From a virus (Duplodnaviria; Caudoviricetes): DNA of 64,000 nucleotides. Both the position numbers and the translations under genes were made by a program. Shown here in pieces: positions 2,876-64,000 of this stretch. The notes below the pieces were generated by a model. The model saw only the letters and a list, made by a program, of their open reading frames with translations, was not told the origin of the DNA and did not search any database. The stretch spans positions 96,001 through 160,000 of the IMG/VR virus record IMGVR_UViG_2832410175_000003; one strand, given 5' to 3'. The first letter of the stretch is position 1, and each line of letters opens with the position of its first letter.

Positions 2876-3040
2876 ATGGGAATCCCAAAGCACAAACCCA
2901 GCGCGAAGCAGAAGTCTCGCGCAAAGTATCAGAGCGAGAACCGTCTCGCAAAGAATAAGGAGCGCCGCCAGAAGAAGCACGAGAAGCGTCTCGAGTATTT
3001 CAAGAAGCGCCGCGAAAAGAAGCAGGAGGCAGCTAAGTGA
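2876..3040 (+). CDS. 54-aa highly basic small protein (absent from ORF track)
   Basis: GAGGAG RBS at 2862-2867; MGIPKHKPSAKQKSRAK...KKQEAAK; GTGA overlap with next gene. Confidence 0.75.
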   Translation: MGIPKHKPSAKQKSRAKYQSENRLAKNKERRQKKHEKRLEYFKKRREKKQEAAK

Positions 3041-3714
3041 GCGAAGCAACAAAGAGCATTTTCCAGACGCTGTATGATGCAGATGTCACCGGAAAGGTAA
3101 AGAAGAAGAACGGCTTGTCGTACATCAGCTGGGCAGCTGCGTGGGCAGAGGTCAAGAAGCGTTATCCTGACGCGACCTATCATGTCTACACCTGCCAGCC
3201 CGACCCGTATGAGGAAACCATTACGGAGTATGAGGACGGCGTTCCGGTTATGTCCCGCACTGTCAAGCGCACGCCGCAGCCGCGTCCGTGGTTTGACGAC
3301 GGAAAGAGCGCATGGGTTGAAGTCAGCGTGACCATCAATGGTCAGGAGGCGAAGGAAACCTATGCCATCATGGACTTCAAGAACAACGCTGTGAAGGCAG
3401 ATCAGGTCACCTCCACCGACGCCAACAAGGCAAAGATGCGTGCGCTGGCTAAGGCTTGTGCACAGCACGGCCTCGGATTATTTATCTACGAGGGCGAGGA
3501 CATGCCGGAAGGCGTCAAAAAGGAACGTACCGGTCTGGCCGACGCTCGTAAGAAGGTCGTTTCCGCCGCGCAGGCAGCCGTTAAGAAGGGCGTTGACCGC
3601 GCCAAGATTTACGCGCTGATTGCTGAGAAGAACAACGGCAACGATTCGCCGACCGAAATCCCGACCATCGCACTCTGCACCGAAATCACCACCGCCATTA
3701 AGGCGATGAAGTAA
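3037..3714 (+). CDS. Single-strand annealing recombinase (Sak/DUF1071, Rad52-like)
   Basis: KKNGLSYISWAAAW and KAKMRALAKACAQHGLGLFIYEGED motifs; directly upstream of SSB. Confidence 0.85.
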   Translation: MSEATKSIFQTLYDADVTGKVKKKNGLSYISWAAAWAEVKKRYPDATYHVYTCQPDPYEETITEYEDGVPVMSRTVKRTPQPRPWFDDGKSAWVEVSVTINGQEAKETYAIMDFKNNAVKADQVTSTDANKAKMRALAKACAQHGLGLFIYEGEDMPEGVKKERTGLADARKKVVSAAQAAVKKGVDRAKIYALIAEKNNGNDSPTEIPTIALCTEITTAIKAMK

Positions 3715-3737
3715 AACACCAAGAAGGAGATATAAAT

Positions 3738-4139
3738 TTGAACAAGATCGTAATTATTGGCCGCCTGACTCGCGACCCGGAGCTCAAGTCCACCAACGCA
3801 GGCACTTCCGTATGCAACTTCTCTGTTGCCGTAGACCGTACTTACCGTGACAAGGAAGGCAATCGCCCGACCGACTTTTTCGACATTTCCGTTTTCGGCG
3901 CAACCGCTGAGTTCGTGTCCAAGTATTTCAAGAAGGGCAGCTCTATCGCTGTTTCCGGTGCTATGGAGTCCCGCAAGTTTGTGGACAAGGACGGTAACAA
4001 CCGCATTGCTTGGTCGCTCCATGCCGACGAAGTAAATTTCTGCGGCAGTAAGTCCGAGAACAACGGCGGCAACCAGAAGCCGAGTATTGACGAGGGCTAC
4101 TCCGGCGACCCGGTTGAGTCCGACGACGTACTGTTTTAA
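3738..4139 (+). CDS. ssb: Single-stranded DNA-binding protein
   Basis: NKIVIIGRLTRDPELK OB fold, acidic tail DDVLF; TTG start. Confidence 0.95.
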   Translation: MNKIVIIGRLTRDPELKSTNAGTSVCNFSVAVDRTYRDKEGNRPTDFFDISVFGATAEFVSKYFKKGSSIAVSGAMESRKFVDKDGNNRIAWSLHADEVNFCGSKSENNGGNQKPSIDEGYSGDPVESDDVLF

Positions 4140-5006
4140 GTGAGCGAATTCACCGAAAAGCTGAAGAATAGAGTCTGGAGCTGGTCTTCTGCGGCGCAAG
4201 CGCACGAATGCCCCTACGGCTTCTATCTTCAGCGGCTCGCTGAGCCGAGGATTAAACAGGACGAAAACGTATTCGCCCAGTATGGCAGCCAGATGCACGA
4301 ATGGCTCGAACTGGTATTCAAAGGTATCATGCAGCCGGAGGAGCTTCTGGAACTGTATCTCACCGACTACGAATCAAAAATAACGCTCAAGTGGCCGTTT
4401 AACCGCTATGTAGACCTTGAGAAATCCTACTATGAGGACGGTCTCGCGTTCGCCCGTCATTTTAAGGGACTCTCGCCGAACTATGAAGTCATCGGTGTAG
4501 AGCTTGAGATGAAGGCGGAAATCGAGGGTTACAAGGTCATCGGTTATATCGACCTGCTGGTCAAGAACAAAAAGACCGGCGAGTACATTATCGTAGACCA
4601 TAAGAGTAAGAAGAAGTTCGCCAGCAAAGCAGAGGAGAAGAAGTACCGTAAACAGCTTGAGTTCTACGGTTATCTTGTCCATGAGAAGATGGGCGTCTGG
4701 CCGGCTTATACAGACCTCGACCTGTTTCGAGGGCAGAAGCATTACATCGAGCCTTGCACAGCAGAGGACTGCATCGCGGCCAAGGATTACTTCATTGAGT
4801 CTGTAAAGACCGCCTGCGAGACCGAAGAGTGGCTGGACAAGCATTCCATCAAGGCGCGTGAGAACTTCAAATCTGCCAAGGACGCGAAAAAGGCTGGAAA
4901 GGCTGACTTCTTCTGCACTGAAATCTGCTCCGTGCGTTCTCATTGCCCGATGTCCTCCGCTTATGTGAAACCGAAGAAAGAGAAAAAAAGTAAGAAAGCA
5001 GGTTAA
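4140..5006 (+). CDS. PD-(D/E)XK exonuclease (RecB/Cas4-like, Cys cluster)
   Basis: SWSS..CP, GYIDLL, IVDHKS, QLEFY, C-terminal CxxxCxxxxxC. Confidence 0.85.
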   Translation: MSEFTEKLKNRVWSWSSAAQAHECPYGFYLQRLAEPRIKQDENVFAQYGSQMHEWLELVFKGIMQPEELLELYLTDYESKITLKWPFNRYVDLEKSYYEDGLAFARHFKGLSPNYEVIGVELEMKAEIEGYKVIGYIDLLVKNKKTGEYIIVDHKSKKKFASKAEEKKYRKQLEFYGYLVHEKMGVWPAYTDLDLFRGQKHYIEPCTAEDCIAAKDYFIESVKTACETEEWLDKHSIKARENFKSAKDAKKAGKADFFCTEICSVRSHCPMSSAYVKPKKEKKSKKAG

Positions 5007-7378: not shown

Positions 7379-10300
7379 TTTTTCAGAACTACCACAAACA
7401 CACAACCTACAGTAACCCTCGCGTCAGCGACTCGGTCGTGACCTACGAGGATTACGCCAAACGTGCCGTCGAGCTCGGACATTCCATTCTGTCCAGCTGC
7501 GAGCATGGCTGGCAGGGGAGATATATCGAGTGCTACGACCTCGCAAAGCAGTACGGTCTGAAGTTCCTGTTCGCCGCTGAGGCTTACTGGGTCTGGGATC
7601 GTCACGAGGAAGACCGTTCCAACTGTCATATTTGGGTTGGCGCGAAGAACGAAAACGGCCGCGAATGGATTAACGAGGTTCTCAGTCAGGCGAACGAGGA
7701 TGGTTTCTACTACCAGCCGCGACTGGATGAAGAGCTTCTCGACCTGCTTCCGGCGGGCGACGTTTGGATCACAACTGCCTGTGTTGCCGGATGGAAGTAT
7801 CTCGGCGAAGAAGAAGAACGGCTCAAGGCTCTATGGAAGAAGCTGTACGACAAACATGGTGACAACTTCATGTTTGAGGTGCAGTACCACCCCTCTGAAC
7901 GGCAGAAAGAGCTGAACCGTTACATTCTGAATCTGCGAAAAGAGATTCCCGCACCGATTATCATGGGCTGCGACAGCCACTACATCGAGGAAAACGGCGC
8001 AGAACTCCGCTCCGACTTTCTTCTTTCCAAAGAAGACCGCAAGGCTTACGATGACGAGGAAGAATGGTTCATGGATTACCCGGATGGCGACACTGCCGTC
8101 CGACGCTTCCGCGAGCAGGGTGTCTTGACAGAAGCTGAGATCACGGAGGCAATCGACCGGACAAACTGTTTCCTCGAAGTTGAGGAGTACGAGTGCGATA
8201 TCTTCGACGACAGCCTGAAGCTGTTCTCACTCCACCCAGATTGGACACAAGAGCAGAAAAATGCCGAGTATCTTCGTTTGGTTGATGAAGGCTGGCAGAA
8301 CTACAAGGCCGAGGTTGCCACGGATCTGCTTTCAAAATATGAAAAAGAGATCAAATCCGAAACCGACACGGTTGTCGAGTGCCACATGGCAGACTACTTC
8401 ATTGATAATTACCACGTCATCAGGCGAGGAAAAGAGCTCGGCGGCCATTTGACTAATACTGGTCGAGGAAGCGCGGTTAGTTTCTTTACCAACAAGCTGC
8501 TCGGATTTACTGAGGTTGACCGAATCGCAGCCAAGGTAAAGATGTATCCTGAACGCTTTATGACCGCAACTCGAATCCTCGAAACCCACAGTTTGCCGGA
8601 TATTGACTTCAATGTAGCTGAACAGGATATCTTCGCAGAAGGTCAGGCTCAGGTCTGCGGCCGTGACCATGCGGTTCAGATGCTTGCTTACGGCACGCAA
8701 AAAGCGTCAGCTGCGTGGAAGATGTTTGCGAAGTCACAGAATATCGACTTTGCTACGGCGAATGAAGTGTCCGCCCAGATTAAACGATATGAGAACAAGC
8801 TCCATACCGTTGATGAGGAAGAGAAGGACACCATCGACATCATGGACTACATCGACAAGCGATTCCATGACGTTTACCTCCGTTCGACCGAGTATCAGGG
8901 CATCATCACGAGCTGGTCCCCAGCACCGTGCGCGTTCCTGTTATATCAGGGCAGTATTCGCCGCAAGATTGGTCTTGTAAAGATCAAAGACAGAATCTGC
9001 TGCGCAATGGATGGTCACTGGGCGGAGAAGAATCACTTCCTGAAGAATGACTTGCTCCGTGTTGCCGTGGTTGACCTTATCAATAAAGGGTACACTCGTG
9101 CCGGTCTTAAAGTCCCGACCGTGAATGAACTGCTCGCTATGTGCCCGTCGGAAGACCCCGTGTGGGATATTTACCGCAAGGGCTGTACACTCGGTATCAA
9201 TCAGGTTGAGCAGCCGGGAACTGCCAGCCGAGTAGGCGTTTACGCGCCGACCAATATTTCCGAGCTTTGCGCGTTCATCGCCGCAATTCGCCCGGGATTT
9301 AAGTCAATGTATAAGATTTTCGAATCTCGACAGGACTTTTCGTATGACGTTAAGCCGTTCGACGACCTGCTTCGCACGGAAGAGCTACCGCAGTCGTTCT
9401 GCTTGTATCAGGAACAACAGATGGCAGTGCTGAACTACGCCGGCTTTCCGATGTCAGAATGTTACGCGGCGATTAAGAACATTGCTAAGAAACGTAAAGA
9501 GAAAGTTCTTGCTTATCATGAGCGATTTATCAACGCATTCTCAAAACGACTGGTCGAACAGGAAAACATCAATAAAACTGATGCCGCTGAAAAGGCTAAA
9601 AATGTTTGGAAAATCATCGAAGATGCTGCCCAGTATGCCTTTAATAGCAGTCATTCGTACAGTGTTTCTTTGGACTCCCTTTACGGTGCATGGCTCAAAC
9701 AGCATCATCCTCTCGCGTTCTATGAAACCTTCATGCGTATCATGGACGAGAAGGGAGACAAGGACAAGCTCGCCGCCGCCAAGGATGAAGCCGAAAGCTA
9801 CTTTAATATCAAGTTCCCGCCGTTCAAATTTGGTCAGGATAACCGAAAGGTAACCGCAGACGAAGAGAACAACGCAATCAGCAACGCGCTGACCTCTATC
9901 AAGGGATTCAACAAGGCTGCCGCCGTTGCTCTTTATGAGCTCGGGCAGGAGCCGCCGAAGTACCTTTCCGACGTTCTTCTGGCTCTCCGACCAAAGAGCA
10001 TTATGAAGTCCACCACCGAGCCTCTGGCTCAAATCAGCTACTTCTCAAGCTACGGCAACGACCGCGAGGTTCTAAACATCATCGCTCTGTGCGAGGAGTT
10101 CGGATACGGTGCAAAAGCATCCATGCCGCGAGAGCGCGTTGATAACAGCTTTCTGGCTGATATTGTACCGAAGTACGCCGACGGTCTCAAGAAGGACGGC
10201 CAGCCAGCGACAAGATATACGTTCACGAGCCTGCAGATGAGTACCTTGAAAGACGAAAAAAAGCGGCTCGCGGCCGCTCTTAAAAAGAACCCAACGCCGG

Positions 10301-58177: not shown

Positions 58178-58723
58178 ATGAACTATGATATGAATATGAT
58201 TAAATACCGCAAAAGTGGGTTTTTCAGAATTGCAGCAGCTATTCTGATGATCTGTTTTACACTATTTGGGCTTACCGCTTGCGCCGGTACTACTGACAGC
58301 AAAGATAATAACGATGATAATGCACTGATACAAGGGACATGGGAAATAGATACCGGCTCTGGTGCTGGTTATAAATTCGTTGACGATAAGTTTATGTGGT
58401 TAAAATCCATCGAGAATGTTAACGATAACTACTGGTACGGAGATGTTGAGTATTATAAAGGTGCTGAAGCAATGGAAATAGCAGGACTAACAGAGGAGGA
58501 ACTTCAAAGCAGCCTGCCAGGTCTTAAACCTGAAAACATTTTTGTAACAAAATTAGATCCCGAAAAAATCATTACCGATGGTGAGGATAAAACTGCTACC
58601 AATATGAACGACCAAACCTTATGGACTCGCTTATGGCTTATTGAAGAAAATGAGGACAGTGTTGCTGCGGTAGTGTTTGATTTAGAAACTTTTAGTATGG
58701 AGAGCTACACTAAAGTTAAGTAA
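58178..58723 (+). CDS. Acidic lipoprotein
   Basis: LTAC lipobox. Confidence 0.75.
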   Translation: MNYDMNMIKYRKSGFFRIAAAILMICFTLFGLTACAGTTDSKDNNDDNALIQGTWEIDTGSGAGYKFVDDKFMWLKSIENVNDNYWYGDVEYYKGAEAMEIAGLTEEELQSSLPGLKPENIFVTKLDPEKIITDGEDKTATNMNDQTLWTRLWLIEENEDSVAAVVFDLETFSMESYTKVK

Positions 58724-58813
58724 AACCAGAAATTTGAAGTTGTGTAATTGAAATGTCACAGATGTATTGGGAGAAAGAGTTATGGTTATAAAGAACTGGG
58801 AAGGAGAAATATT

Positions 58814-59134
58814 ATGGCTGTTGATAACGCAAGTCAGATTGATGCAATCGCAAACGATAAAGAAAATGCTTGTTTGGTACTCCTTATTACCGACCATTTG
58901 AATTGGGACAATGAGTTTGAACACTTGAAGATTTTACAAGATAAAATCAATGCGTATGTGGCTTTTATCGAAAGCGAACAGTACGATGAAATATACCCCA
59001 ATGCTGATTTTAAGATGGCTATGATAGAAATCCATTTCAAGTATGATATAACAGATAACTGCCAGAAATTTTTGCAAGTAGTTCAAGATCAATTAGGACG
59101 GATAGGGATAAAAATCAAGGCACAGATTAGCTAA
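58814..59134 (+). CDS. DUF6572-like protein (possible immunity protein)
   Basis: IDAI...LLITDHLNW...HLKILQDKINAYVAFIES. Confidence 0.65.
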   Translation: MAVDNASQIDAIANDKENACLVLLITDHLNWDNEFEHLKILQDKINAYVAFIESEQYDEIYPNADFKMAMIEIHFKYDITDNCQKFLQVVQDQLGRIGIKIKAQIS

Positions 59135-59222
59135 CAGTTTCCAGTTTGTAGAACTTAGTAAAACAAAATTCAGTTTGCATAGCAGGCAGCCCAACCACAA
59201 TTAAATCTTCACAGCTTTACTA

Positions 59223-59256
59223 AGCAGGAGATCCGAAAAGGTCTCCTGCTTTTTTG
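59223..59256 (+). terminator. Intrinsic terminator
   Basis: AGCAGGAGA/TCTCCTGCT hairpin plus T-tract. Confidence 0.75.
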
Positions 59257-59373
59257 CACCCTAAATTAAATGTATCACAGCTAAAACTATCGAAAACAAA
59301 ATAGGCAGATACCATAAAAGAAGTTTTTCTTTGGATAGTGCTTGTCTTTTTTGAATTCATCACTTGACATTGT

Positions 59374-59655
59374 GGCAAAGAGCTGATGACTCAGGACGAG
59401 ATCGCGGTGATGGACGGAGGCAAGTGTATCTTGCAGCTTCGAGGGGTGCGGCCGTTTTTCAGCGACAAGTTTGATATAACCCGCCATCCCCGCTACAAGT
59501 ACCTTGCTGATGCCGACAAGAAAAATACCTTTGACATTGAACGGTACATGAAACGCAGACCGGCCATTGTGAAGCCGGACGAGCCTTTCGATCTGTACGA
59601 ATTGAAAGCCACCGACCTTCAACCCAACAATTCAACTGAACGAAAGGAAATGTGA
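59374..59655 (+). pseudogene. virD4: 3' fragment of a Tn1549-type virD4/traG
   Basis: GKELMTQDEIAVMDGGKCILQLRGVRPFFSDKFDI. Confidence 0.88.
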
Positions 59656-59657
59656 AT

Positions 59658-59816
59658 ATGAGCTTTTTTACTAACGCTATCGACGTTTTGCAGACTCTGG
59701 TCATCGCCCTGGGCGGCGGCCTGTGCGTGTGGGGCGGCATCAACCTTCTGGAAGGTTACGGCCAGGACAACCCTGCCTCCAAAAGCCAGGGCATCAAGCA
59801 GTTCATGGCTAATTAA
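59658..59816 (+). pseudogene. maff2: Truncated Maff2-family membrane protein
   Basis: MSFFTNAIDVLQTLVIALGGGLCVWGGINLLEGYGQDNPASKSQGIKQFMA then stop; the second TM helix is missing. Confidence 0.85.
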
Positions 59817-59970
59817 AGGGAACAAAAAGAAAGGAAAAGCCAATCCAGACGGTATCAGCGGCAGGCTACAAGAATAAATTGTGATTTCACAAGATTGGTG
59901 CTATAATAAGAGAAAAGTTCCTGCCGGGGCAGCCGCTCCGGTGGTATGGATAGAAAGGCAGGAAAACAAT

Positions 59971-60243
59971 ATGCACATCAGCTATAAACCACTCTGGCAC
60001 ACACTGTTAGAGCGTGATATGAGAAAAGAGGATTTAAGGCTTGCCGCTGGTATGACAACAAATATGATTGCCAACATGAGCAAAGAGGGAAAGCACATCA
60101 GCATGGATACATTAGCCCGTATCTGCGAAACGCTGAATTGTGAGATTACCGATGTGATTGAGTTAGTACCAGACGAGCCTGCTTCCACAGGAGGTAAGGA
60201 ACATGAGCGAATTGAAACCAAGAATAAAAGAAAACGGAATTGA
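59971..60243 (+). CDS. Cro/C1-type HTH protein
   Basis: ISYKPLWHTLLER...TLARICETLNC. Confidence 0.85.
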   Translation: MHISYKPLWHTLLERDMRKEDLRLAAGMTTNMIANMSKEGKHISMDTLARICETLNCEITDVIELVPDEPASTGGKEHERIETKNKRKRN

Positions 60244-60580
60244 TTATATCCTTGTTGGAGATTACTACATCCCGGACTTGAAGTTGCCGGAGGAACACCG
60301 CCCCATCGGAAAGTACGGACGGATGCACCGGGAATATTTAAGAGAAGTCTGCCCAGCCAGATTACACACATTGACCCTGACCGGGGAATTGTGGACATAT
60401 CTTGCAGACCTGAACGAACAGGCACAGAAACGGTTAGACACCATCATGGAGCAGATGAAAGCTGCCGAGGGCGTGACCGAGGAATTGAAGCGTACCCGTC
60501 AAATGGAATGGGTGCAGCGTTGCAATAACATTCACAACCGGGCAGAAGAAATTGTTTTACATGAGATGATTTATTCATAA
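60203..60580 (+). CDS. tnpV: TnpV-family protein
   Basis: Paralog of 44928-45311. Confidence 0.88.
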   Translation: MSELKPRIKENGIDYILVGDYYIPDLKLPEEHRPIGKYGRMHREYLREVCPARLHTLTLTGELWTYLADLNEQAQKRLDTIMEQMKAAEGVTEELKRTRQMEWVQRCNNIHNRAEEIVLHEMIYS

Positions 60581-60631
60581 CGGTATGGTAGAATGATTAT
60601 TACAAATTAGAAGTTGTAAAGGAGACTTTGT

Positions 60632-61123
60632 ATGGGTAGAAAAGAAATAACAACAAAAGAAGATTTAATGAAAGTAATAGAATTATTCGAAAATACTGGA
60701 ATTACATACTGGTTGGATGGCGGATGGGGTGTAGATATTTTAGCTGGTAAACAAACAAGAATTCATAGAGATATAGATATAAATTTTGATGCTCAACATA
60801 CGGAAAAATTGTTAAATGTGCTTTTGAATCTGGGCTATAAAATTGATACAGACTGGAAACCGGTTAGAATAGAGTTATATAGTGATGAACTTGGTTACTT
60901 AGACATTCACCCGTTCGTTTTAAGTGAGGACGGAACTTCAAAACAAGCTGATTTAGAGGGTGGCTGGTATGAGTTTGAAAAAGATTACTTTGGTAGTGCT
61001 TTTTTTGAAGGAAAAACAATTCCTTGTATATCCTTAAAAGGCCAAAGAGTTTTCCATTCAGGTTATGAATTAAGAGATAAAGATAAGCATGATATTTCAA
61101 TTCTTGAAAGTTTATCAAAATAA
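60632..61123 (+). CDS. lnu: Lincosamide nucleotidyltransferase, Lnu(A)-like
   Basis: YWLDGGWGVD, HRDIDI.FDAQHT, GYLDIHP, IPCIS, FHSGY as in Lnu(A); AT-rich. Confidence 0.85.
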   Translation: MGRKEITTKEDLMKVIELFENTGITYWLDGGWGVDILAGKQTRIHRDIDINFDAQHTEKLLNVLLNLGYKIDTDWKPVRIELYSDELGYLDIHPFVLSEDGTSKQADLEGGWYEFEKDYFGSAFFEGKTIPCISLKGQRVFHSGYELRDKDKHDISILESLSK

Positions 61124-61241
61124 CATTGCTGTAATTTCTAAGATAAATTCCACTTTATCGCTTTGAAATTTTAACTGAATAAGTATAGCACCAACCGCTG
61201 CTACATGGAAGCAAACACAACCATGCAACAGCGGTTTTTCT

Positions 61242-62048
61242 TTACCGTTTTTTCCTTTGACTGATAGGAGTTCCTGTTTTCTTTGATTTTTGTAGAATCC
61301 GAATGAGCCAGCGAAATTCTTCGTCTGACAGATTTTTATAGTTGATGCCGAGCTGCTTGCAGTAAAGGACAACCAGCTTTTCATCCCGACTGCCCTTGAA
61401 ATTTTCAACCGCTTCCAAATTTTCTTTCAATTCATCGGCAACGGTGGTCTGGGGCGCACTCTCGCTGTCCTTTTTGTGGGCTTCCCGAATATCCCGGATA
61501 ATGAGATTGAGGTCATCAAGAACCATGTGGCTGAAATATTCATCATCGCTGATATGGGCGGCTTGCAGCACTTTCAAATGCGGGTCGTCTTCGCCGGGGC
61601 GATACCGTTCAATGATTTCATGCCGGACAGTATCGACAAGGGCGTTGAGGTTTTGAATCTGCATGGTGGCAATCCCATCTACATAAATCTCAATGTCCGC
61701 AAGAAACTTGATAAAGTCCTTATGAGTGGCAAGCTCACAGAGCAGACGGTTGTTAATCCGACCGCCTTTCAGAAGTGCCACCATCTCATCATTCAAATGC
61801 AGCTCTGTTAGTGGCGTGTTGATCTGCTCCCGGTTCTCTGTCCGGCACAGCAGATAATCAACGGAAACCCCATAGAAGTCTGCCAGCGTGATAAGGTTGC
61901 CATGATTGATTTCCTTATAATCCTCTTTTTCATAACTGCCAAGAGCTGATTTGGAAATGCCCGTCAGCTCTGATAATTCTTCCAGATTTAAGCCTTTGTC
62001 CTTGCGGAGTTCCCAAAGGCGTTCCTGTATGCTTGTCGCTCCTTTCAT
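61242..62048 (-). CDS. XRE-family HTH regulator
   Basis: LNLEELSELTGISKSALGSYE; paralog of 45362-46210. Confidence 0.88.
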   Translation of the reverse strand: MKGATSIQERLWELRKDKGLNLEELSELTGISKSALGSYEKEDYKEINHGNLITLADFYGVSVDYLLCRTENREQINTPLTELHLNDEMVALLKGGRINNRLLCELATHKDFIKFLADIEIYVDGIATMQIQNLNALVDTVRHEIIERYRPGEDDPHLKVLQAAHISDDEYFSHMVLDDLNLIIRDIREAHKKDSESAPQTTVADELKENLEAVENFKGSRDEKLVVLYCKQLGINYKNLSDEEFRWLIRILQKSKKTGTPISQRKKR

Positions 62049-62223
62049 GGGCGCACGCTCCTTTCCGGCGGTTTCATTACTGCCGCTTAACTGGATTATA
62101 TCATACTTTCCGCAATCGTGGAAATTTCTGATTTTTACCCTTAATTCCTACTTTGTGGACATACGGCACAGGGCACAAAAATGTTCTATGATACAGGTAG
62201 TTCATCGATGGATTATTCCAATC

Positions 62224-62357
62224 GAATGACCAGCCTGTGTGGGATATGCTTCCCCGGCGATGTAGCGCCATGACTTTTGGCAGGGATATGGAGGAACCCT
62301 GACCGAAACGAGCGTACCAAAGGGAGCAATACGCCGCTGTGAGATTCAGGGGAGGAA
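62224..62357 (+). ncRNA. Candidate structured non-coding element, copy 2
   Basis: Same blocks as 46376-46473 plus an inserted hairpin. Confidence 0.45.
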
Positions 62358-62531
62358 CGACACCGGGGAGAACTGGCGAACTGATACCGAAATGATACCG
62401 AAACACGACAATCTGATAGGGGGATAGTCTACCCTATTGCTGATACTTCTGGAGATTTTAGACGGCTCTATGACCGTAATTTTGCCGAAAATCGCCCCGA
62501 AACTATACACTAAAACGGGAGGAAACGCAAT

Positions 62532-62720
62532 ATGCCGAGAATGAGCAAAAAGAGGAAGCATGAGCTTTCTTTTTACCTCAATGACCGGGGGCGTGTCACT
62601 TACAACGAATTATGCCGGAAATGCAAGCATGGGTGCAAGCAGAGCTTCCGGGCGGTTGTGGTTGACTGCCCCCGTTATTTATCCAAAAGAGCAAAGAAAA
62701 AGGAGGAACACACCGAATGA
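62532..62720 (+). CDS. Small Cys-containing basic protein
   Basis: CRKCKHGCKQS...CPRY. Confidence 0.65.
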   Translation: MPRMSKKRKHELSFYLNDRGRVTYNELCRKCKHGCKQSFRAVVVDCPRYLSKRAKKKEEHTE

Positions 62721-63058
62721 ATTTTGAATTTATGACGATAGGCACACCGTTGCCGCCCTGTATGCCCTTTCCCAGAGCGTTGACAGGATTTCCAGTCAGC
62801 AGCACCGCAAAGGTCATGTACTGCCGGATGTTGGACGCTATGCTATCCAACGGACAGGAGGACGAGAACGGAATCCTGTTTATCTGCTTCCCTGTCACAG
62901 CCATTGCCGCAGTCCTGTCCCGCAGCCCCATGACGGTCAAGCGTTCTCTGAATGAACTGGAAACCGCCGGACTGATCATGCGAGTGCGTCAGGGCGTTGG
63001 AGAACCAAACAGGATTTATGTGCTGATACCGGGAAAGGAGGACGCTGCCCTTGCCTGA
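62717..63058 (+). CDS. Short RepA_N-like winged-helix protein
   Basis: AKVMYCRMLD...ELETAGLIMRVRQGVGEPNRIYV. Confidence 0.75.
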   Translation: MNFEFMTIGTPLPPCMPFPRALTGFPVSSTAKVMYCRMLDAMLSNGQEDENGILFICFPVTAIAAVLSRSPMTVKRSLNELETAGLIMRVRQGVGEPNRIYVLIPGKEDAALA

Positions 63059-63347
63059 TACCTCAAAGCTGGAAAAGCTCAACCGAGAGTTGGAAAAGAG
63101 TGAAAAGAAACTGCGGAAAGCCATCAATGATGAAAAGGCATTGCAGCACCAGCTAAAGCAGCTTACCCGAAAAGAACGGACACACCGGCTCTGTACTCGT
63201 GGCGGTATGCTGGAAAGTTTTCTGCAAGAGCCGGAACGCCTGACAGATGATGATGTCATGCTGTTGTTGACACTCATTTTTCACAGGCAGGACACGCAGG
63301 AACTATTGAAGAAACTGCTGGAACGTGAGAAGCCGGAAACCCCTTAG
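63051..63347 (+). CDS. DUF3847-like protein
   Basis: RKERTHRLCTRGGMLES. Confidence 0.75.
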   Translation: MPDTSKLEKLNRELEKSEKKLRKAINDEKALQHQLKQLTRKERTHRLCTRGGMLESFLQEPERLTDDDVMLLLTLIFHRQDTQELLKKLLEREKPETP

Positions 63348-63352
63348 TTTAC

Positions 63353-63392
63353 TAAGGGCGCAATTATACACCACCCAAAGGTTGGTGCATTG
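63353..63392 (-). other. MOBQ-type oriT
   Basis: Minus strand TAATTGCGCCCT (63366-63355), one mismatch to the MOBQ nic core TAAGTGCGCCCT; adjacent hairpin CACCACCC-aaa-GGTTGGTG. Confidence 0.65.
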
Positions 63393-63699
63393 CGTTCTCC
63401 GAAGGCTCCTTGCCGGAGGGCTGTGATTTTTCGCAGTCATGGTCTGCTCCAAATCATACAGGGGACGCTACGCTTCCCCTGCGCTGGCTACCGCCAGCTA
63501 CCCTTTTGTGGACTTGTCATCTGGGGACACCTTGCGTTGCAAGCTGTTCCCAGCCGACAAGTTTCATAAAATATGCTATCTTTTCGATAGGCAATAAAGT
63601 ATAATAAAGTCAGCAATAAATCGGAATTTTACGGTCAGTAAGGAATGCGTAAAGTTATATGATTGTATTATAAGCGATTTGTTAAATTTTTATAACCAC

Positions 63700-63728
63700 T
63701 TGTATTTGCCTGCGATTTATGGTATAAT
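63700..63728 (+). promoter_or_regulatory. SigA promoter with extended -10
   Basis: TTGTAT-N17-TATAAT, with TG upstream of the -10. Confidence 0.65.
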
Positions 63729-63959
63729 ATTTTGAAATTTAGAAAGAGGTGGGAAGATGATTAACTTTTCTTGCAAATAAAATCAAAATATGCGGTAGTG
63801 CTATACTTTGGCATTATTGTGTCTATTGCAAGAAAGTTATATGTCTATCTTACTCAATATAGTGCTGTTGCCACTTTTGCTTAGTGGTGTTATTTTATGC
63901 TATGACGAGCTGCAAGGATAAACTTTCTTGTGGCTCTTATTTTGTTTTGGAGGTGCTTT

Positions 63960-64000
63960 ATGAATAGTGCAGAACAGATAGTTACACATGATTCACTCCG
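63960..64000 (+). CDS. Start of an unidentified CDS (window edge)
   Basis: GGAGGT RBS then MNSAEQIVTHDSL. Confidence 0.5.
   Translation, partial: MNSAEQIVTHDSL

Follow-up and report, generated by a model that had tools for sequence, protein, structure and literature searches.

In integrons, each gene cassette carries an attC site, an imperfect palindrome of 57-141 bp (R''-L''..L'-R') that forms a single-strand hairpin and has a GTTRRRY core. To our knowledge, integrons are essentially unknown in the phylum of the hosts considered here. In Acinetobacter, accessory modules called dif modules are flanked by inversely oriented short sites, the pdif sites of XerC/XerD (PMC6449649, PMC13141974), and insertion sequences (ISs) of the IS1202 family specifically target pdif (PMC10132070). 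Tn4451-type mobilisable elements nested in conjugative elements are also a known class (PMC3158075, PMC12084326), and one paper on clostridial mobilisable transposons regards their accessory genes as fixed content (PMC3158075). Here we describe short sites, termed L and R, that bound small cargo genes in a stretch of 64,000 nucleotides (the window; positions 96,001 to 160,000 of IMG/VR virus record IMGVR_UViG_2832410175_000003), where a lincosamide resistance gene, lnu, and other cargo occupy two slots of a nested mobilisable element.

Sites L and R and the slots they bound

A first-pass annotation of the window had proposed that AT-rich cargo genes are bracketed by a 12-bp inverted motif, behind a -10 element in two cases. 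All five motifs lie where they had been placed (left copies at 58730, 60604 and 63618; right copies at 59136 and 61145), as do the -10 boxes (TGGTAGAAT at 60586, TATAAT at 63600), and the switch to AT-rich DNA is present, with a GC content of about 0.28-0.37 over lnu and after 63570 versus about 0.45-0.55 in the backbone. A set of about 200 related loci was compared, 80 of the loci coming from named gut Clostridia (including Roseburia, Faecalibacterium, Blautia, Clostridium leptum and Holdemania), with slots located through anchors in backbone genes. Right and left motifs are indeed near-inverses of one another: the consensus of 47 distinct units gives a conserved pair, L = ACAAAT-NN-GAAKTT and R = AAATTCCAGTTTGTC. 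The proposed motif is thus part of a real boundary site, the full sites being longer, at 14-15 bp. L stands directly ahead of the ribosome-binding site and R just beyond the stop codon, at median distances in these units of 19 nt from L to the start codon and 21 nt from the stop codon to R. Together, the comparisons identify the short inverted motifs as the boundaries of small, apparently swappable gene cassettes.

The slots belong to the second of two elements nested in the window, whose gene order is HTH, TnpV, slot 1, XRE, RepA_N-like, DUF3847, slot 2, MobA/MobL, primase-like, VapE-like and TnpX-like large serine recombinase; 15 kb of sequence past the window end was taken in to read the remainder of slot 2 and of the element. 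By its gene content beyond the window (MobA/MobL, primase-like, VapE-like, TnpX-like), this second element is identified as a Tn4451-type integrative mobilisable element (IME) nested in maff2 of a conjugative element. It has the TnpX-like large serine recombinase (556 aa, with Resolvase, Recombinase, Zn_ribbon_recom and DUF4368 domains), the TnpV, the mobilisation relaxase and the discrete integrated form of the Tn4451 family. Its ends lie inside maff2, at about 59781-59787, where the left end varies among hosts. The platform is very common in gut Clostridia: the exact TnpV protein occurs in 19,705 indexed blocks of an assembly collection, with the same element in 10 of the 10 places shown, and the exact Lnu protein occurs in about 19,000 indexed blocks, from many gut genera.

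Slot 1 lies 3' of the tnpV stop codon and slot 2 lies 3' of the DUF3847 gene. Each opens with a conserved -10 box, 7-10 nt ahead of the first L. Different genes between tnpV and the XRE gene in relatives had been proposed as a check, and 23 distinct fillings of slot 1 were found there, along with 47 of slot 2 (counts from 90 loci); a metagenome sample supplied 22 additional slot 1 fillings. All slot 1 fillings start with TAACGGTATGGTAGAATGATTATGAC, then AAAT-NN-GAA-K-TT, a ribosome-binding site and a start codon, and all finish with a stop codon and then AAATTCCAGTTTGTC, with backbone sequence next. Slot 2 has the same layout, between AGTATAATGAAGATGACAAC on the left and a conserved flank and terminator on the right. 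A 19-mer comprising the slot 1 promoter and L gave at least 119 matches in the metagenome collection, 85 of them directly after the tnpV 3' end. About 75 unrelated protein families are found in the slots, among them six GNATs, APH, two radical SAM and two MBL-fold proteins, a peptide deformylase, ABC-F, Lnu, HTH proteins and many DUFs. Their open reading frames (ORFs) run almost uniformly in one direction (137 on the plus strand versus 5 on the minus strand, the latter taken to be spurious frames). The -10 boxes are conserved ahead of different cargos and are here treated as putative promoters; some units, namely the ABC-F cassette and a mini-unit in locus L001, also have promoter-like sequences of their own.

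Within the window by itself, a loose 12-mer (up to 3 mismatches) is at background, with 65 matches versus 69 expected, and only the two best left copies stand out (2 versus 0.03 expected), in a post hoc test. In the slot DNA of relatives, the enrichment is strong: with up to 2 mismatches, R is matched 87 times in 125 kb of slot DNA versus 8 times in 803 kb of flanks, the chance expectation being 8.4 over both strands of all 928 kb, and most of the R matches outside slots are slots overlooked by the anchoring. The strict R consensus gave 5 matches in four whole genomes and 0 in the control. These data speak strongly against a chance origin of the motifs in AT-rich intergenic DNA, a view supported only by the background frequency of the loose 12-mer and already refuted by the slot enrichment, the fixed positions, the exact breakpoints and the strict R matches.

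Where units stand in arrays, the junction between them is rigid: R is followed by about 10 nt and then by L, with 23-24 nt from R start to L start in 6 distinct junctions and 22-25 nt in 13 junctions once further loci are included. L consistently departs from the reverse complement of R, in having T rather than C at position 6 and in the centre of the site. There is modest covariation of neighbouring R and L sites (P about 0.01, n = 12) and none between the L and R of a single unit (9.74 versus 9.89 of 14, P = 0.93), evidence against a unit being enclosed by an RNA or single-strand stem. A hairpin formed by R-10nt-L is only weakly supported by DNA folding, with z-scores of -2.9 to +1.0, mostly not significant. 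No Rfam family matched the sites. A scan of viral contigs with the 15-mer TTCCAGTTTGTAGAA gave only chance or coding matches, and a stricter junction pattern matched in 2 viral contigs only. A degenerate junction pattern proved uninformative in 400 Clostridia genomes, with 12 matches versus 8 in the control.

Breaks in presence and absence among relatives, the comparison by which the first-pass annotation was to be judged, coincide exactly with the motifs, and the same cassettes occur in different slots and backbones. Five cassette families are common to the two slots. The window's lnu unit (60608-61159) has 98.2% identity over 552 bp with the slot 2 unit of a Blautia hansenii element, and the identities are 98.9% for a 166-aa unit, 99.5% for a 181-aa unit and 87% for a kinase; the flanks of cassettes common to both slots are unrelated outside the sites. 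In five different contexts, the left break of lnu is ACAAAT/TAGAAGTT and the right break is AAATT(C)/ (slash, break). Beyond the Blautia hansenii unit, four contexts place lnu after TnpW, by a truncated unit in a prophage-like region, with an IS on its left and with an IS on its right, and it also occurs outside the element, beside other transposases (locus L235). Backbones 98.5% identical to the window hold other slot 2 cargo, the divergence starting right after 63629, that is, after L. Two independent deletions (loci L003/L007/L008 and L145/L235) stop in the L centre, and a 90-nt segment with no ORF, lying between direct copies of L, is present in locus L001 and not in locus L157.

The features of the window and of the remainder of slot 2 are collected in Table 1.

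Table 1. Coordinates of cassette sites, cargo and backbone features; positions are those of the window unless locus L012 is named
Feature	Position	Strand	Remarks
181-aa ORF	58178-58723		upstream neighbour of DUF6572 unit
L-type site ahead of DUF6572 gene (..AGAAATTTGAAGTT)	58728..58741	+	6 nt past stop of 181-aa ORF; fits L consensus
DUF6572 cargo gene, 106 aa	58814..59134	+	Pfam PF20212, E 6e-36; final gene of first nested element (IME1)
R-type site AGTTTCCAGTTTGT	59136..59149	+	directly 3' of DUF6572 stop codon; relatives diverge immediately beyond
Canonical junction spacer AGAACTTAGTAAA, then empty-site-like hybrid ACAAAAT-TC-AGTTTGC	59150..59178	+	
Terminator hairpin	59219..59266	+	relatives of second element have related copies at the close of slot 2
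virD4 3' fragment and maff2, then HTH_26 gene			between DUF6572 gene and TnpV gene
tnpV	60203..60580	+	backbone gene ahead of slot 1; Pfam PF14198, E 3e-42
Extended -10 box TGGTAGAAT of slot 1	60586..60594	+	conserved ahead of different cargos; putative promoter
Slot 1 L site ACAAATTAGAAGTT	60602..60615	+	homology with other lnu contexts begins 60602-60608
lnu, slot 1 cassette, 163 aa	60632..61123	+	Lnu(A)/Lnu(AN2)-family lincosamide nucleotidyltransferase; Pfam PF10706, E 2e-60
lnu cassette R site AAATTCCACTTTATC	61145..61159	+	homology with other contexts stops at 61150-61159
Slot 1 right flank (..TTTTAACTGAATAA..) and terminator	61160..61241	.	terminator common to convergent XRE gene
XRE-family regulator	61242..62048	-	backbone gene; convergent to lnu
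RepA_N-like gene			backbone, between XRE gene and DUF3847 gene
DUF3847 gene	63051..63347	+	backbone gene ahead of slot 2
Slot 2 -10 box TATAAT	63600..63605	+	conserved; putative promoter
Slot 2 L site ATAAATCGGAATTT	63616..63629	+	relatives with other cargo diverge directly past 63629
Start of first slot 2 cassette: leader of ABC-F (Lsa-like) gene	63630..64000	+	runs beyond window end
ABC-F gene	L012 2073-3554		
R-10nt-L junction	L012 3716-3751		between ABC-F and kinase units, in the window's own genome
CPT/zeta-like kinase cassette	L012 3769-4314		
Last R of slot 2	L012 4327-4340		MobA/MobL next

The lnu product scores 252 bits against the NCBIfam Lnu(AN2) model, under the allele cut-off. The DUF6572 gene is always last in IME1 (10 places), and its exact sequence was found nowhere else; the protein is absent from the slots of the second element in the loci searched. 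As the gene is seen solely at the IME1 end, it is the anatomy of its sites, a canonical L and R, that makes the DUF6572 unit a candidate member of the cassette system. The 29 nt at 59150..59178, just past its R-type site, are missing from relatives L210, L212 and L213. In one relative of IME1, a 114-aa Imm33-family gene stands in place of the 195-aa gene (L216:1718-2062), which suggests that the IME1 cargo region may hold immunity-type genes that are also subject to turnover. Of the two nested Tn4451-type elements, one (window 44.8-59.4 kb) lies in virD4 and the other (from 59.78 kb onward) in maff2 of a single conjugative element; each has an XRE gene, primase-like and VapE-like genes, and a DUF4368 serine recombinase.

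Several other features of individual units were recorded. The ABC-F (Lsa-like) cassette has its own promoter-like sequence, TGGTATAAT, and a leader of about 440 nt (window 63630-64000, L012 1630-2072) containing short ORFs and terminator-like hairpins, which resembles an attenuator. Mini-units of 80-90 nt without an ORF, bounded by L sites, occur in L001:8427-8517, in slot 2 of locus L010 and in slot 1 of locus L262; one has the promoter-like sequence TGTATGATACT, and another, with a terminator-like hairpin, accompanies the 166-aa cassette. A deletion around 8351-8365 in loci L003/L007/L008 removes the slot 2 promoter, and its joint, CCGACAAGTTT/GAAGTT, connects backbone sequence resembling a site with the L centre. 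In slot 2 of locus L145 (about 274-367) and in L235:2380-2476, a truncated earlier cassette (the start codon and about 30 codons) is fused to the lnu L centre, yielding a short upstream ORF across the lnu ribosome-binding site. A small-gene array with R-10nt-L junctions lies on the reverse strand of 3000-4732 in locus L247, near housekeeping genes (IMPDH, NTP transferase) and outside any recognisable copy of the mobilisable element.

Insertion sequences at the sites

Two related ISs of about 2.5 kb each, here called IS1 and IS2, were seen among the loci: IS1 at L252:4733-7272 (also in L243-L251 and L239) and IS2 at L380:3229-5780 (also in L381-L389 and L241). IS1 encodes an IS91-family Y2 transposase together with a 279-aa Xer/IntI-like tyrosine recombinase; the IS2 proteins are 71% (transposase) and 50% (recombinase) identical to these. 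In two loci, an IS of this make-up lies next to lnu. With a score of 430 bits, the transposases belong clearly to the IS91 family. For the recombinases, the best scores are those with the XerA/integron-integrase, XerD and XerC models, none of which reaches the cut-off.

IS1 was found at nine distinct places, six of which are clear centres of L-type sites and three of which are weaker matches. The clear targets read GACA[AAT]/TAGAAKTT, followed by a ribosome-binding site and a gene, and the orientation of IS1 relative to the site is constant in 9 of the 9 places. IS2 lies at six distinct places, of which four are clear R-type sites (ACAAACTG[GAATT]); in loci L241 and L380, it is cleanly inserted in the R of lnu, between 61150 and 61151. 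Each IS thus inserts in a fixed orientation, with end repeats of 3 bp (ATT) or 5 bp (GAATT), and the IS ends are unrelated to the ends and interiors of cassette units. At 4 of the IS1 places, neighbouring genes also terminate in R or in R-10nt-L junctions, and therefore the system reaches beyond this element family. IS91-family elements that carry an extra recombinase and target cassette sites are apparently undescribed.

Candidate mechanisms of cassette exchange

The explanation towards which we lean, with moderate confidence, is that cassettes are exchanged by conservative site-specific recombination at L and R, with the recombinase acting in trans. Each slot would consist of a -10 box and L, followed by one or more promoterless units made up of a ribosome-binding site, gene(s) and R, and the -10 boxes would drive expression of the cargo. 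Units would be swapped between slots and between elements through recombination at L and at R. Because of the consistent difference at position 6 and in the centre, L and R would be heterospecific, and the reaction would amount to a naturally occurring recombinase-mediated cassette exchange in which orientation is preserved, which could explain the constant direction of the cargo. The catalyst would most likely be an Xer/IntI-family tyrosine recombinase. It is the combination of breaks inside the 14-15-bp sites, unrelated flanks, L/R differences and site-specific, recombinase-bearing ISs that favours conservative site-specific recombination. The first-pass annotation had also postulated a trans-acting recombinase at short sites. 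The cassettes carry no recombinase of their own, as it had said, and the breakpoints and shared cassettes fit such an activity; as to the enzyme, the only candidates found are the Xer/IntI-like recombinases on the IS91-family elements that target the sites.

A number of observations weigh against this explanation. No recombinase is encoded in or beside the slots, Pfam annotation of all element genes having revealed no tyrosine recombinase; the three PF00589 matches in the 175-kb record lie far from the slots, at record 32 kb, 74 kb and 114 kb (window 18.1 kb). IS1 and IS2 are absent from this same record. The empty sites and circular cassettes that had been proposed as checks did not appear: there was no empty slot 1 in metagenomes, no empty slot 2 in viral contigs, and no lnu circle or tandem junction in viral contigs. 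Within one unit, L and R have different central nucleotides, a poor fit to a simple serine-integrase attL/attR pair, and the conserved arms, at 5-7 bp, are short for a classical tyrosine-recombinase core. Moreover, the conservation could in part reflect regulation, since transcription would be expected to start in the region of L and a -10-like TAGAAT is present in the junction. Finally, the loci are related elements, and their counts are not fully independent.

A broader version of the site-specific explanation, which we put forward only tentatively, is that this is a Firmicutes counterpart of the integron: a large pool of small cassettes with heterospecific L and R, common to gut Clostridia, would be swapped directionally between promoter-equipped slots of mobilisable elements, either by the IS91-borne Xer/IntI-like recombinases (one lineage specific for L and one for R) or by a host Xer-type enzyme. 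Capture and expression would then be divided between the slot-providing element and a separate mobile recombinase.

Of the alternatives, the one that survives best, although we consider it unlikely, supposes that L and R are conserved regulatory sequences, L a promoter-proximal leader and R a 3' stability or termination element. No dedicated recombinase would then be involved, and cassettes would move by rare homology or microhomology events, either RecA-dependent or through template switching as single strands are replicated in conjugation. Such a role would suit the start of L about 7 nt past the conserved -10 boxes and the extended -10-like box, TGTAGAAT, within the internal junction, and it would demand neither a slot-linked recombinase nor empty sites or circles. 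However, only about 7-15 bp of sequence are common at the breakpoints, independent breaks cluster at site centres, and two ISs with tyrosine recombinases insert exactly there; nor do the missing L/R covariation (P = 0.93) and the weak junction hairpins indicate an RNA stem.

It is also conceivable, but improbable, that the IS91-family (Y2, rolling-circle) transposases themselves move the cassettes by one-ended transposition, as for ISCR elements, with L and R serving as preferred targets or surrogate ends and an IS inserted at a site mobilising the gene next to it. IS1 and IS2 do abut cassettes at L or R, their transposases clearly belong to that family, and lnu is found outside the element beside other transposases. 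Yet most cassette junctions have no IS nearby, the IS ends bear no relation to cassette interiors, and the regular R-10nt-L arrays, with two clean boundaries per unit, are unlike one-ended rolling-circle capture.

We give still less credence to the idea that L and R are secondary, attL/attR-like sites for the element's own TnpX-like large serine recombinase, perhaps assisted by TnpV, each being a hybrid of a palindromic slot site (ACAAAT..GTTTGT) and a palindromic cassette site (AAATTC..GAATTT). The difference between L and the reverse complement of R does lie mainly in the centre, as in serine-integrase attL/attR pairs; an empty-site-like ACAAAAT-TC-AGTTTGC is present 3' of the DUF6572 unit, and slot 1 is always preceded by tnpV. 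Against this model stand the differing L and R centres of one unit and the element's own ends in maff2, which are unlike L/R. In addition, slot 2 has no adjoining tnpV, and distant TnpV contexts on plasmids (tet(M), aac-aph) contain no L/R sites.

If cargo turnover does proceed by recombination at two 14-15-bp sites, this would provide a concrete, testable mechanism for the flow of resistance genes among gut commensals. The platform carries lincosamide, ABC-F, aminoglycoside-type and other resistance-like genes. Cassettes not yet known could be mined through their boundaries, and an integron-like logic of capture would operate in a phylum that, as far as we know, is essentially without integrons. 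The site-specific elements combining an IS91 transposase with a recombinase would be a further piece of this biology.

Comparison with described systems

The platform shares with Tn4451/Tn4453 and Tn6104-Tn6106 a TnpX-like protein with DUF4368, TnpV, a Mob relaxase and accessory gene(s) directly 3' of tnpV (catP in Tn4451), and it too is nested in a conjugative element. It differs in that its relaxase is MobA/MobL, accompanied by primase-like and VapE-like genes. In the literature searched (full text), neither the L/R motif strings nor a description of cassettes in Tn4451-type or gut mobilisable elements was found.

The first-pass annotation had likened the cassettes to those of integrons, and much of the likeness holds. 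The cassettes are mostly promoterless, in one orientation and often of a single gene, and stand in arrays behind a putative resident promoter; a short imperfect inverted-repeat site marks each cassette boundary; the cargo is rich in resistance enzymes and GNATs; and the IS recombinases associated with the sites score best against Xer/integron-integrase models. Nevertheless, the system does not qualify as an integron: the array has no intI gene next to it, and its sites lack the attC architecture. The sites here are 14-15 bp, or about 36 bp as R-10nt-L, they fold weakly, their core is ACAAAT-NN-GAAKTT, and there are two slots per element.

The physical association of IS91-family rolling-circle elements with cassette arrays recalls the ISCR/IS91 capture seen near class 1 integrons. 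The ISs described here differ in carrying an additional Xer/IntI-like tyrosine recombinase and in inserting site-specifically in the boundary sites, and most cassettes have no IS nearby. Mobile insertion cassettes, which a DDE transposase mobilises in trans, have terminal inverted repeats identical to those of a cognate IS, and target-site duplications. Classification as such a cassette was rejected: the unit flanks are inverted (ACAAAT.. / ..GTTTGT) rather than direct repeats, and IS1 and IS2 ends are unrelated to the unit ends.

The dif modules of Acinetobacter offer a further parallel. As in that system, the modules lack a recombinase of their own, have inversely oriented sites and are found in many different backbones, their movement presumably depending on an enzyme in trans, and the targeting of pdif by the IS1202 family is matched by that of L and R by IS1 and IS2. 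On the other hand, L and R have no clear 11-6-11 Xer architecture, and a Firmicutes (Bacillus) dif core, which may differ from the hosts' own dif, showed no excess over the control in four host genomes. Between neighbouring units there are two sites (R then L) instead of a single shared one, the cargo lies in a single orientation behind a putative slot promoter, and the platform is an integrated mobilisable element and not a Rep_3 plasmid. Taken together, these comparisons place the arrangement, whose sites were not found described in the literature searched, among site-bounded gene cassettes.

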